A DNA stretch of 23,053 nt from a virus. Lineage: Duplodnaviria; Heunggongvirae; Uroviricota; Caudoviricetes. The notes under the pieces were generated by a model, which did not search any database, was not told the origin of the DNA, and was given only the letters and a program-made list of their open reading frames with translations. The stretch covers positions 1-23,053 of IMG/VR virus record IMGVR_UViG_2537562020_000011; one strand, given 5' to 3'. Both the position numbers and the translations under genes were made by a program. This document shows positions 6,019 through 6,735 of the stretch, in pieces (within the stretch, counting starts at the first letter, position 1; each line of letters begins with the position of its first letter).

Positions 6019-6735
6019 TCAGTCTAAGTATTGATGTATTTGTGAAACTTTACCTTTAATGGTGTAACCACCATTCAGTTCGATGGGTTTGTAAAGCGGA
6101 TTCAGTGACAACAGATAGATGTTTGGTCCGTCAATCGCAACTTTTTTTAGTGTTACGTTTGGCGTTCCTTCCAATTGGATTAAGATTATTTTTCCCACCA
6201 GTTCTCTAATGTTACTTGAGCATGGTGTGATCAGCACGGTAGATCCGTCGGGGATGGTTGGGAGGCCGTTAGAGTTTGTCATCGCATCTCCCTCAACATG
6301 CAATAAAAAAGAGTTTTCAGCGGTTTTTGTCATGACATCAACCCAATTCTTAATACCAGGAATCTCGGTTACTGGACAACTCATATCCCAATAACCAGCC
6401 TGTTCCCACGTTAAAACGGGCAACCGGGCGATGTTGTCACTAATGTAAAGGTACTGATTCAGACGCAGATCATCGGTTTTATCGTGACCGTCCTTTCCAT
6501 AAAGAATCCATTCAGGAGATTTGGAAAGCAATTTTGACAGTAGATGCAAATTCTCACCGTCAGGTTTTGAAGAGCCATTTTCCCATTTTGTTACGGATAC
6601 ACGAGATATGCCGATTGCTTTCGCAACCTGCTGTTGGGTTAATCCAACGTCTTTTCGACGATTCCGAATACGTTCGCTGATAGTGTTTTTCATGTAACCA
6701 ATGTTACTACCAAGTGATGTTGCTATGGTTGACAT
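6019..6735 (-). CDS. Prophage repressor, cI-like (N-terminal XRE-type HTH plus C-terminal S24/LexA-like domain)
   Basis: HTH region LTQQQVAKAIGISRVSVTKWENG. C-terminal domain aligns by eye to lambda cI/LexA (VEGDAM...VTLKKV). Start placed at the ATG at 6735 (MSTIATS...) because the track start at 6792 is TTG and overlaps the divergent cro-like gene. Alternative start is the ATG at 6693. Confidence 0.8.
   Translation of the reverse strand: MSTIATSLGSNIGYMKNTISERIRNRRKDVGLTQQQVAKAIGISRVSVTKWENGSSKPDGENLHLLSKLLSKSPEWILYGKDGHDKTDDLRLNQYLYISDNIARLPVLTWEQAGYWDMSCPVTEIPGIKNWVDVMTKTAENSFLLHVEGDAMTNSNGLPTIPDGSTVLITPCSSNIRELVGKIILIQLEGTPNVTLKKVAIDGPNIYLLSLNPLYKPIELNGGYTIKGKVSQIHQYLD

Follow-up and report, generated by a model that had tools for sequence, protein, structure and literature searches.

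Alanine at the peptidase nucleophile position of a common lambdoid immunity repressor of Escherichia coli

The DNA analysed here, referred to as the window, is the whole 23,053-nucleotide (nt) stretch given by positions 1 to 23,053 of the virus record IMGVR_UViG_2537562020_000011 (Caudoviricetes) in the IMG/VR database. It carries a lambdoid prophage element whose immunity repressor, a two-domain protein resembling lambda cI, was claimed in a preliminary description of this DNA to contain Ala in place of the Ser that serves as the nucleophile of S24 peptidases. Here we examined the position of this residue, its distribution among related prophages, and its likely meaning for the coupling of the prophage to the SOS response. 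The repressor gene and the codons in question are as follows.

6019 to 6693, minus strand: immunity repressor gene, 224 amino acids (aa) from the ATG at 6693, with an HTH_3 domain, a variable linker and a Peptidase_S24-like C-terminal domain
6283 to 6285, minus strand: codon GCG (CGC on the plus strand) of Ala137, opposite the nucleophile Ser (lambda S149, LexA S119)
6394 to 6399, minus strand: codons of Ala99-Gly100 in the motif EQAGYW, the retained homologue of the scissile bond (lambda A111-G112, LexA A84-G85)
6145 to 6147, minus strand: codon of Lys183, the retained homologue of the general base (lambda K192, LexA K156)

Results

The repressor and its catalytic residues

The longest form of the repressor open reading frame (ORF) extends on the minus strand from a TTG at 6792 to 6019 and encodes 257 aa; this start was used in the preliminary description. 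The frame also contains ATG codons at 6735 (238 aa; the start chosen by the Prokaryotic Genome Annotation Pipeline, PGAP) and at 6693 (224 aa, beginning MKNTISER), and the Ala at the nucleophile position is A137, A151 or A170 in the 224-, 238- and 257-aa forms, respectively. All residue numbers given here are those of the 224-aa form starting at ATG 6693. In a Pfam search, the N-terminal part matched HTH_3, a helix-turn-helix (HTH) domain, with 60.2 bits, and it was also matched by the N-terminal domain of P22 c2 (E value of 3e-12; template modeling [TM] score of 0.96 to structure 3jxb). Residues 92 to 216 scored 61.2 bits with Peptidase_S24 (PF00717; cut-off of 23.3) over profile positions 1 to 115 of 116. 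Both the profile and the fold thus place the C-terminal domain in the S24 homologous family, and databases annotate the repressor as a "LexA family protein" or an "S24 family peptidase."

Self-cleavage by S24 proteins uses a Ser-Lys dyad. The register of the segment HVEGDAM was compared with that of known S24 proteins by phmmer, MAFFT, hhalign and fold comparison, all of which agreed with the earlier claim. The phmmer search matched the repressor to full-length lambda cI (3bdn) with an E value of 1e-13 and paired "llhvegdamtnsng" with "wlevegnsmtaptg," "vtlkkv" with "ftfkkl," and "eqagyw" with "vqagmf"; the lambda residues paired in this way are, in checked mature numbering, S149, K192 and A111-G112. 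Alignment of the family profile with E. coli LexA by hhalign set Ala137 opposite S119, K183 opposite K156, and A99-G100 opposite A84-G85, and a MAFFT alignment with 78 homologues placed Ala137 where the others have the Ser of G-[DE]-S-M. The column of K183 was invariant in a 30-sequence alignment, and every Ala-type allele examined kept the AG dipeptide, apart from a single Salmonella member with VG.

The AlphaFold2 (AF2) model of the repressor had a mean predicted local distance difference test score (pLDDT) of 83, with lower values around residues 131 to 150 (block means of 68 and 63). Its top solved match in Foldseek was again lambda cI 3bdn (E value of 4e-11), which was the best match by sequence as well, followed by the lambda cI C-terminal domain 1kca (TM score of 0.80; root mean square deviation of 2.1 Å), and C-terminal domains of LexA were also found (TM scores of 0.6 to 0.7). 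No alignment, whether profile-based or structural, gave another Ser opposite LexA S119; phmmer, MAFFT and hhalign all put Ala there. The two accompanying claims, that the downstream Lys of VTLKKV is conserved and that the GCG codon lies one base from TCG, also held, and natural alleles about 3% away indeed have TCG.

Collectively, these comparisons confirmed at the level of sequence and predicted fold that Ala137 occupies the S24 nucleophile position and that AG and Lys are intact. Of the features of an active S24 peptidase, the repressor has the general-base Lys and the Ala-Gly (or Cys-Gly) scissile bond and lacks the nucleophile Ser. Since it belongs to S24 by profile and fold yet is without the defining catalytic feature, it should be classed as a non-peptidase S24 homologue.

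Distribution of the Ser and Ala alleles

A census of 5,426 complete E. coli genomes revealed 702 carriers of the repressor (about 13%), 577 of them at 99% nucleotide identity or more, 117 at 95 to 99%, and 8 at 80 to 90%. The 61-nt segment centred on the codon matched in 683 genomes, and in 681 the match was exact, with GCG (Ala); of the two inexact matches, the one that was checked differs at another base. The corresponding 63-mer of a sister allele gave 11 matches, 8 of which were exact with TCG (Ser) and came from O55:H7 strains and FDAARGOS_1077. The other three were of an intermediate type, C8; two of them were checked and have GCG (Ala). The O178:H19/P0003 type, with TCA (Ser), was present in eight. 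The overall split in this clone-biased sample is thus about 686 Ala to 16 Ser, the Ser alleles being about 40 times rarer. A similar picture emerged from IMG/VR, where the best 80 loci comprised 78 Ala and 2 Ser; these loci include 12 distinct intact Ala protein alleles, all of which keep AG and Lys.

In a collection of 15 billion proteins, the near clade of the repressor consists of five clusters at 90% identity.

P0001: Ala, codon GCG; E. coli; 499 members
P0002: Ala, codon GCG; E. coli
P0003: Ser; E. coli
P0005: Ala, codon GCA; Salmonella; 70% identity to the window protein
P0006: Ser, codon TCG; Enterobacter

Every listed member of P0002, P0003, P0005 and P0006 has the same residue as its representative, and the uniformity of P0001 is covered by the DNA census only, its members not having been read. 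More distant relatives (about 140, at 55% identity or less, including those in 21 species-representative genomes) all have Ser, with the exception of one degenerate Arsenophonus sequence, and a profile search together with a scan of species-representative genomes for further near relatives added only distant Ser-bearing ones. The comparison of orthologous repressors that had been proposed in the preliminary description therefore came out in two ways: Ser is the rule among the distant relatives, but within the immunity type itself Ala is the majority state (about 686 of 702).

Among 50,697 sequenced phages, the repressor DNA found nothing above short patches of 75% identity, and the best protein identity was 43.5%. 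This absence says nothing about inducibility, because the Ser-type sisters were likewise absent from that collection. Prophages Tritos and Perceval of strain LF82 were also considered as carriers and were dropped, as the LF82 paper gave no sign of this repressor and no record of the phage collection, whose coverage of these two prophages was not checked, exceeded 43.5% identity to it.

Evolution of the codon

To place the two states on a tree, 15 alleles were compared by neighbor joining, and the topology was the same for the whole gene, the N-terminal part and the C-terminal domain. P0006 (Ser) branches off first from the root, followed by P0005 (Ala), P0003 with O178:H19 (Ser) and P0002 (Ala); the remaining core clade unites the O55:H7-type Ser alleles with two sets of Ala alleles, the main ones and those of the C8 type. 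At least three changes of state at the Ser/Ala site are required by this order in either direction, and repeated loss and loss followed by reversion both fit the tree. Fitch parsimony gave a homoplasy excess of 2 for only three residues of the protein, and this site is the one among them that lies in the C-terminal domain. As the codons pair as TCG/GCG and TCA/GCA, every switch would be the same first-position T/G transversion.

The two other residues with equal homoplasy are residue 30, a Ser/Thr toggle ("GIS" versus "GVT") in the HTH of the DNA-binding domain, and residue 74 in the linker.

Between the window allele and P0002, both of which have Ala, dN (nonsynonymous substitutions per site) is 0.036 and dS (the synonymous equivalent) is 0.69 in the C-terminal domain, a dN/dS ratio of 0.05, and Ala-versus-Ser comparisons gave 0.06. 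Among 87 Ala-type sequences, representing 24 distinct DNA alleles, the domain had 25 synonymous variants, 5 nonsynonymous ones and no stop codon, and the repressor ORF was intact in all 87. Far from decaying, the domain of the Ala-type repressors is held under strong purifying selection. The same data refute the reading of Ala137 as an alignment or sequencing artefact or as a mark of a decaying pseudogene, to which we give practically no credence: the only weak point in its favour is the lower AF2 confidence at residues 131 to 150, whereas the same codon occurs in at least 681 independent complete genomes, the ORFs are intact under a dN/dS of 0.05, and three alignment methods agree.

It is harder to dismiss the idea that the Ser/Ala difference is neutral, that is, that a chance T-to-G change spread by clonal expansion, for instance of sequence type 131 (ST131), and was copied by recombination, without any selection for non-inducibility. 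Collections of complete genomes over-sample successful clones, and 577 of the 702 alleles have 99% identity or more to the window allele. Moreover, lambdoid prophages recombine freely: 84 of the 364 variable nucleotide sites are homoplastic on our small neighbor-joining tree, and recombination among homoimmune prophages could carry the codon. However, Ser is invariant in the roughly 140 distant relatives, so the site is not neutral in general. Ala also stands on three diverged backgrounds and in two codons, GCG in the core clade and P0002 and GCA in the Salmonella cluster P0005, and the site is singled out in its domain by its repeated changes of state. Furthermore, since the Ala-type domain has diversified by 25 synonymous variants, the Ala state is not very recent. 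Neutral hitch-hiking is, on balance, rather improbable, although it deserves to be kept in mind.

Immunity region and operators

The surroundings of the repressor gene correspond to those of a lambda-type immunity region, with the following features.

6742 to 6755, no strand: operator-like perfect palindrome GTAACTATTGTTAC, the cro-proximal site of the right operator (OR), kept in all five allele clusters
6694 to 6707, no strand: operator-like perfect palindrome GTAACCAATGTTAC, the repressor-proximal OR site, abutting ATG 6693
5931 to 5944, no strand: operator-like perfect palindrome GTAACAAGTGTTAC at the position of the left operator (OL), downstream of the repressor and ahead of the leftward ydfC-dicB-exonuclease-xis-int block
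6785 to 7000, plus strand: cro-like gene, 71 aa, divergent from the repressor; annotated as Cro/CI family in identical DNA, with an orthologue that hits P22_Cro
6997 to 7422, plus strand: YdaT-family gene in the cII position, first after cro; orthologues hit PF06254

The palindromes are 14 bp long, and the OR region looks tripartite, with an imperfect middle site at about 6719 to 6733. With up to one mismatch allowed, the pattern GTAAC-N4-GTTAC had four matches (three of them perfect) versus 0.40 expected, and four were reached in none of 100 shuffles. O-like and DnaC-like replication genes follow the YdaT-family gene, and to the left of the repressor lie ydfC, dicB, an ExoVIII-type exonuclease gene, xis and int, in the order taken from an annotated near-identical region. 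A consensus promoter scan of positions 5800 to 6900 gave no PR, PRM or PL. The repressor thus combines a Cro/C1-type HTH, a divergent cro and predicted palindromic operators on both sides, as lambda-cI-type repressors do. The 1.6-kb immunity region is 100% identical to that of four complete E. coli genomes, including enterotoxigenic E. coli (ETEC) O6:H16.

The operators also bear on the start of the repressor. Because the PGAP start at 6735 would fall among them, ATG 6693 is the more likely start, and the 224-aa repressor is possibly made from a leaderless PRM-type transcript. In most database entries, the protein starts at ATG 6735 or further upstream, with a leader that overlaps the operator palindromes; the conserved-looking leader peptide "SNIGYMK" coincides with the operator GTAACATTGGTTAC that abuts ATG 6693.

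The operators GTAACAATAGTTAC and GTAACATTGGTTAC, or a near variant, are common to the five clusters from E. coli, Salmonella and Enterobacter, Ser and Ala types alike. The OL-position site is present in the four loci with long enough downstream sequence; it was not found in the P0005 locus. The recognition-helix regions of the Ser- and Ala-type clusters are nearly identical. From the shared operators and the near-identical recognition helices, we infer that the Ser- and Ala-type clusters form one immunity group, in which the Ala repressor should repress the Ser-type phage.

Coupling to the SOS response

LexA S119A and cI S149A do not cleave and have non-inducible (Ind-minus) phenotypes. By analogy, we consider it probable that the repressor of the window is a natural Ind-minus-type repressor, which would still bind the GTAAC-N4-GTTAC operators and would not cleave itself. 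Without the Ser hydroxyl, no acyl-enzyme should form, and both the self-cleavage stimulated by activated RecA (RecA*) and that at alkaline pH would be abolished, so that the prophage would be blind to the canonical route of SOS induction. The C-terminal domain would persist because the protein still depends on it to dimerise and to bind the operators cooperatively, the two functions that this domain serves in lambda cI. The genes driven from PL and PR (dicB, the exonuclease and the replication genes) would stay repressed even during SOS. Because the Ser- and Ala-type alleles share operator sequences, the lysogen would also stay immune to homoimmune phages under SOS. Such a locked prophage would pass on by vertical inheritance and then decay.

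A residual activity of the protein would change this view. Cleavage might proceed by another hydroxyl or a water together with Lys183, or it might be performed in trans by an S24 protein that has the Ser, for example LexA, UmuD or a homoimmune Ser-type repressor. Such cleavage would explain why AG and Lys are retained in essentially all Ala alleles, and it has a precedent, as the C-terminal domains of LexA and cI reportedly performed intermolecular cleavage in vitro in the work of Kim and Little in 1993. On the other hand, LexA and cI are without detectable cleavage once their Ser is changed to Ala, no alignment offers another Ser in the nucleophile column, and the conservation of three residues over a dN of 0.04 to 0.19 is expected by chance and for structural reasons. 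We regard residual cleavage as very improbable. Structures of S-to-A variants, such as 1jhh, 6a2s and 8s7g, were themselves among the Foldseek matches of the repressor model.

Alternatively, the repressor could be uncleavable and the prophage still inducible by SOS in another way, for example by an antirepressor encoded by the prophage itself or by a co-resident one, in which case the Ala would matter little. Gifsy-type antirepressor systems are reported to work in this manner. In Salmonella, the Gifsy repressors are reportedly inactivated by LexA-controlled antirepressors, as described by Lemire et al. in 2011. The ompW prophage of ST131 strain 4993, which carries the Ala allele, has two candidates for a trans-acting route just inside attR (positions 2983 to 3812 of our locus L127), an "ash" family gene and a gene for a Rha family regulator, both absent from the window, and proteins with a Rha domain are often annotated as antirepressors. 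The immunity module has also moved between prophage backbones, and an ompW prophage, PPompW, of O145:H28, which may carry another allele, was reported to excise after mitomycin C (PMC8112680).

Nevertheless, neither a LexA box nor an antirepressor gene was found in the window. No LexA box lies near a promoter in the window; the single CTGT-N8-ACAG is inside a tail gene and corresponds to chance level. In the ST131 prophage, for which the sulA box was recovered as a positive control, there was no box in the 41.6-kb locus L003, which covers int to capsid and the upstream chromosome, none convincing in the tail and attR part, where one match lies inside an insertion sequence (IS), and no exact box near the ash and Rha genes. 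The only extra early-region ORF searched for antirepressor families, 5121-5495, matched none of them (PHROGs "unknown function"). The Gifsy-type arrangement of a LexA box ahead of an antirepressor gene was thus not seen in the window or in the examined ST131 relative, and we consider SOS induction by such a detour unlikely.

Several observations nevertheless weigh against a natural Ind-minus-type repressor. Its non-cleavability rests on the analogy with the laboratory S-to-A mutants, and the census is clone biased, many of the hits at 99% identity or more coming from human clinical isolates, some of them of the heavily sampled ST131. AG and Lys are still conserved in the Ala alleles, which is unexpected if cleavage has long been irrelevant, the substitutions being too few for significance. 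Prophages that differ in integrase and in site (ompW and yccA) carry the immunity module, as do many lineages; such varied backbones imply horizontal spread, which needs prophage recombination or some lytic route. Finally, PPompW of O145:H28, whichever repressor allele it carries, was reported not only to excise but also to circularise after mitomycin C (PMC8112680); the 21-bp attB-in-prophage sequence is absent from the window.

Carriers and decay of the window element

The preliminary description had taken the Ala as fitting a domesticated element that had lost its morphogenesis genes. The window element is indeed defective, without lysis, terminase or capsid genes; however, Ala is also the majority state in about 686 of 702 carriers and occurs in a prophage that looks complete. 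In ST131 strain 4993, the allele lies in a prophage of about 54 kb at ompW with genes for holin, lysozyme, terminase, capsid, portal, connector, tail tube, tape measure, J and fibre, and its sole obvious lesion is an IS21 in lom. In O111:H8 strain 08-4455, by comparison, the Ala allele lies in an IS-riddled remnant at yccA with the type III effector gene tccP2 (positions 1 to 712 of locus L025). The Ala-allele prophages at yccA have other integrases than those at ompW. The Ser alleles, for their part, are found at yccA (FDAARGOS_1077) and next to rspB (O55:H7), which is a third site, in prophages that look complete.

Since Ala is the majority state of the immunity type and occurs in a complete-looking prophage, it predates the deletions of the window or is independent of them. 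The Ala is not a lesion of a decaying element, and the proposed tie to domestication is borne out only in part. The range of its carriers, from complete-looking (ST131) through IS-riddled (O111:H8) to gutted (the window), is compatible with locking followed by decay and suggests, as a conjecture, that loss of inducibility precedes decay and does not follow it.

The right part of the window contains the following further features.

14462 to 15016: Q gene, of a different and shorter type than in the ETEC O6:H16 relative (L001)
15596 to 16645: DNA methyltransferase gene, followed by two tRNA genes
22628 to 23053: IS transposase gene at the right end of the window

Beyond the tRNA genes, the right arm holds a portal gene, a head-closure fragment, an N-terminally truncated tape-measure gene, and minor-tail and J fragments. 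Compared with the ompW prophage of ETEC O6:H16 (L001), the window is 99% identical over 1410 to 13791 and differs at the integrase end and to the right of about 14.4 kb. The window was considered as that ETEC prophage itself, and this was excluded, as both ends differ and full identity is confined to the 1.6-kb immunity region. The best match of window positions 1 to 5900 to a complete E. coli genome is 96.4%.

The ExoVIII/RecE-type exonuclease is split on the minus strand into ORFs at 1419-2918 (499 aa) and 2947-3888 (313 aa), and in the near-identical prophages (L001 and L003) it is a single gene of 2,472 nt; the gene is probably a pseudogene in the window. ORF 5121-5495 (minus strand; phrog_6937, unknown function) and ORF 4910-5131 (plus strand) overlap and replace the ydfA/ydfB (DUF1391) genes of ST131, O55:H7 and other relatives. 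Two toxin genes, one of the hokD type (type I) at 11543-11755 and one for Doc (death-on-curing) with a small upstream ORF at 12160-12654, were annotated by transfer from the 99%-identical relative L001. The Ser/Thr kinase and PP2C phosphatase pair of the ETEC relative is missing from the right arm of the window. ARAGORN predicted the two tRNA genes as tRNA-Met (CAT) at 16695-16770 and tRNA-Arg (TCT) at 16868-16944. The first is annotated as tRNA-Ile in related prophages, and a CAT anticodon is read as Ile after lysidine modification; the tRNA sets of these prophages vary (Ile/Lys/Gly, Ile/Arg, or Ile/Arg/Arg). In the O111:H8 remnant, tccP2 adjoins IS1203 copies that took the place of the morphogenesis region.

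Discussion

The repressor shares with lambda cI the two-domain architecture, the fold, the aligned AG and Lys, a gene divergent from cro, and flanking palindromic operators, but it is only about 24 to 30% identical to it and has operators of the form GTAAC-N4-GTTAC. Unlike the laboratory mutants cI S149A and LexA S119A, the Ser/Ala difference seen here is natural, and the Ala form is dominant in the population and stably maintained. The closest comparison is with the Ser-type sisters, which are represented by WP_000104592.1 of O55:H7 CB9615, WP_044311451.1 of FDAARGOS_1077 and WP_024173670.1 of O178:H19. These are 97% (FDAARGOS_1077) to 84% (O178:H19) identical to the window allele at the nucleotide level and are alike in operators, AG, Lys and the neighbours cro, ydaT-like, ydfA/C and dicB, but their nucleophile codon is TCG or TCA (Ser).

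Lambdoid prophages that are not inducible are as such already known. DicA of Qin and RacR of Rac are lambdoid repressors that have no peptidase domain. The domain is also missing from those of Sp4, Sp6, Sp9 and Sp10 of O157 Sakai, and Sp6, Sp9 and Sp10 were not induced by mitomycin C (PMC2669165). Like the Sakai repressors, the one described here stands in the cI position and is presumably uncoupled from RecA, and its left arm is related (dicB, ydfC and an ExoVIII-type exonuclease). It is, however, no HTH-only repressor: in the Sakai, DicA and RacR types the whole C-terminal domain is lost, whereas here a full-length, constrained S24 domain is one base away from what would be an active enzyme. 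With the Gifsy repressors it would share the lack of self-cleavage, but the LexA box that Gifsy has upstream of its antirepressor gene was found neither in the window nor in the examined part of the ST131 prophage. In a search of the full-text literature, whose coverage is incomplete, neither this allele nor any S24 phage repressor with a natural Ser-to-Ala change was found described. What sets this repressor apart is the single-base route within a complete, constrained domain and the coexistence of Ser and Ala alleles in one immunity group.

The repeated changes of state could be read in a bolder way, in which the nucleophile codon is a one-base toggle between an SOS-inducible (Ser) and an SOS-blind (Ala) repressor that has flipped at least three times, with Ala favoured at the level of the host. 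An Ala repressor would then silence dicB, the kil-type genes and the replication genes during DNA damage, and it would dominantly lock a homoimmune Ser-type phage. This would explain the approximately 40-fold excess of Ala, including that in fluoroquinolone-exposed clones such as ST131, and AG and Lys might be retained for easy reversion or for a residual role in RecA* binding. We hold this toggle, together with its host-level advantage, to be doubtful.

When prophages are induced by DNA-damaging antibiotics, host cells lyse, toxins are released and genes are transferred. The annotation of this repressor as "LexA family" or "S24 family peptidase" implies SOS inducibility and thus constitutes a systematic annotation trap. 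Should the Ala-type repressor prove uncleavable, a lambdoid immunity type that ranks among the commonest of E. coli, present in about 13% of complete genomes and with Ala-type carriers that include ST131, ETEC and O111:H8 strains, would be SOS-blind, and predictions of inducibility from domain content alone would be wrong for this immunity type. The finding would overturn nothing established, yet it concerns one of the commonest prophage immunity types of E. coli. The natural pairs of Ser and Ala alleles, one base apart at the codon on nearly identical backgrounds, represent a ready experimental system, which could show what SOS coupling costs or gains the prophage and its host and whether the loss of inducibility is a first step of domestication and not a late symptom of it.

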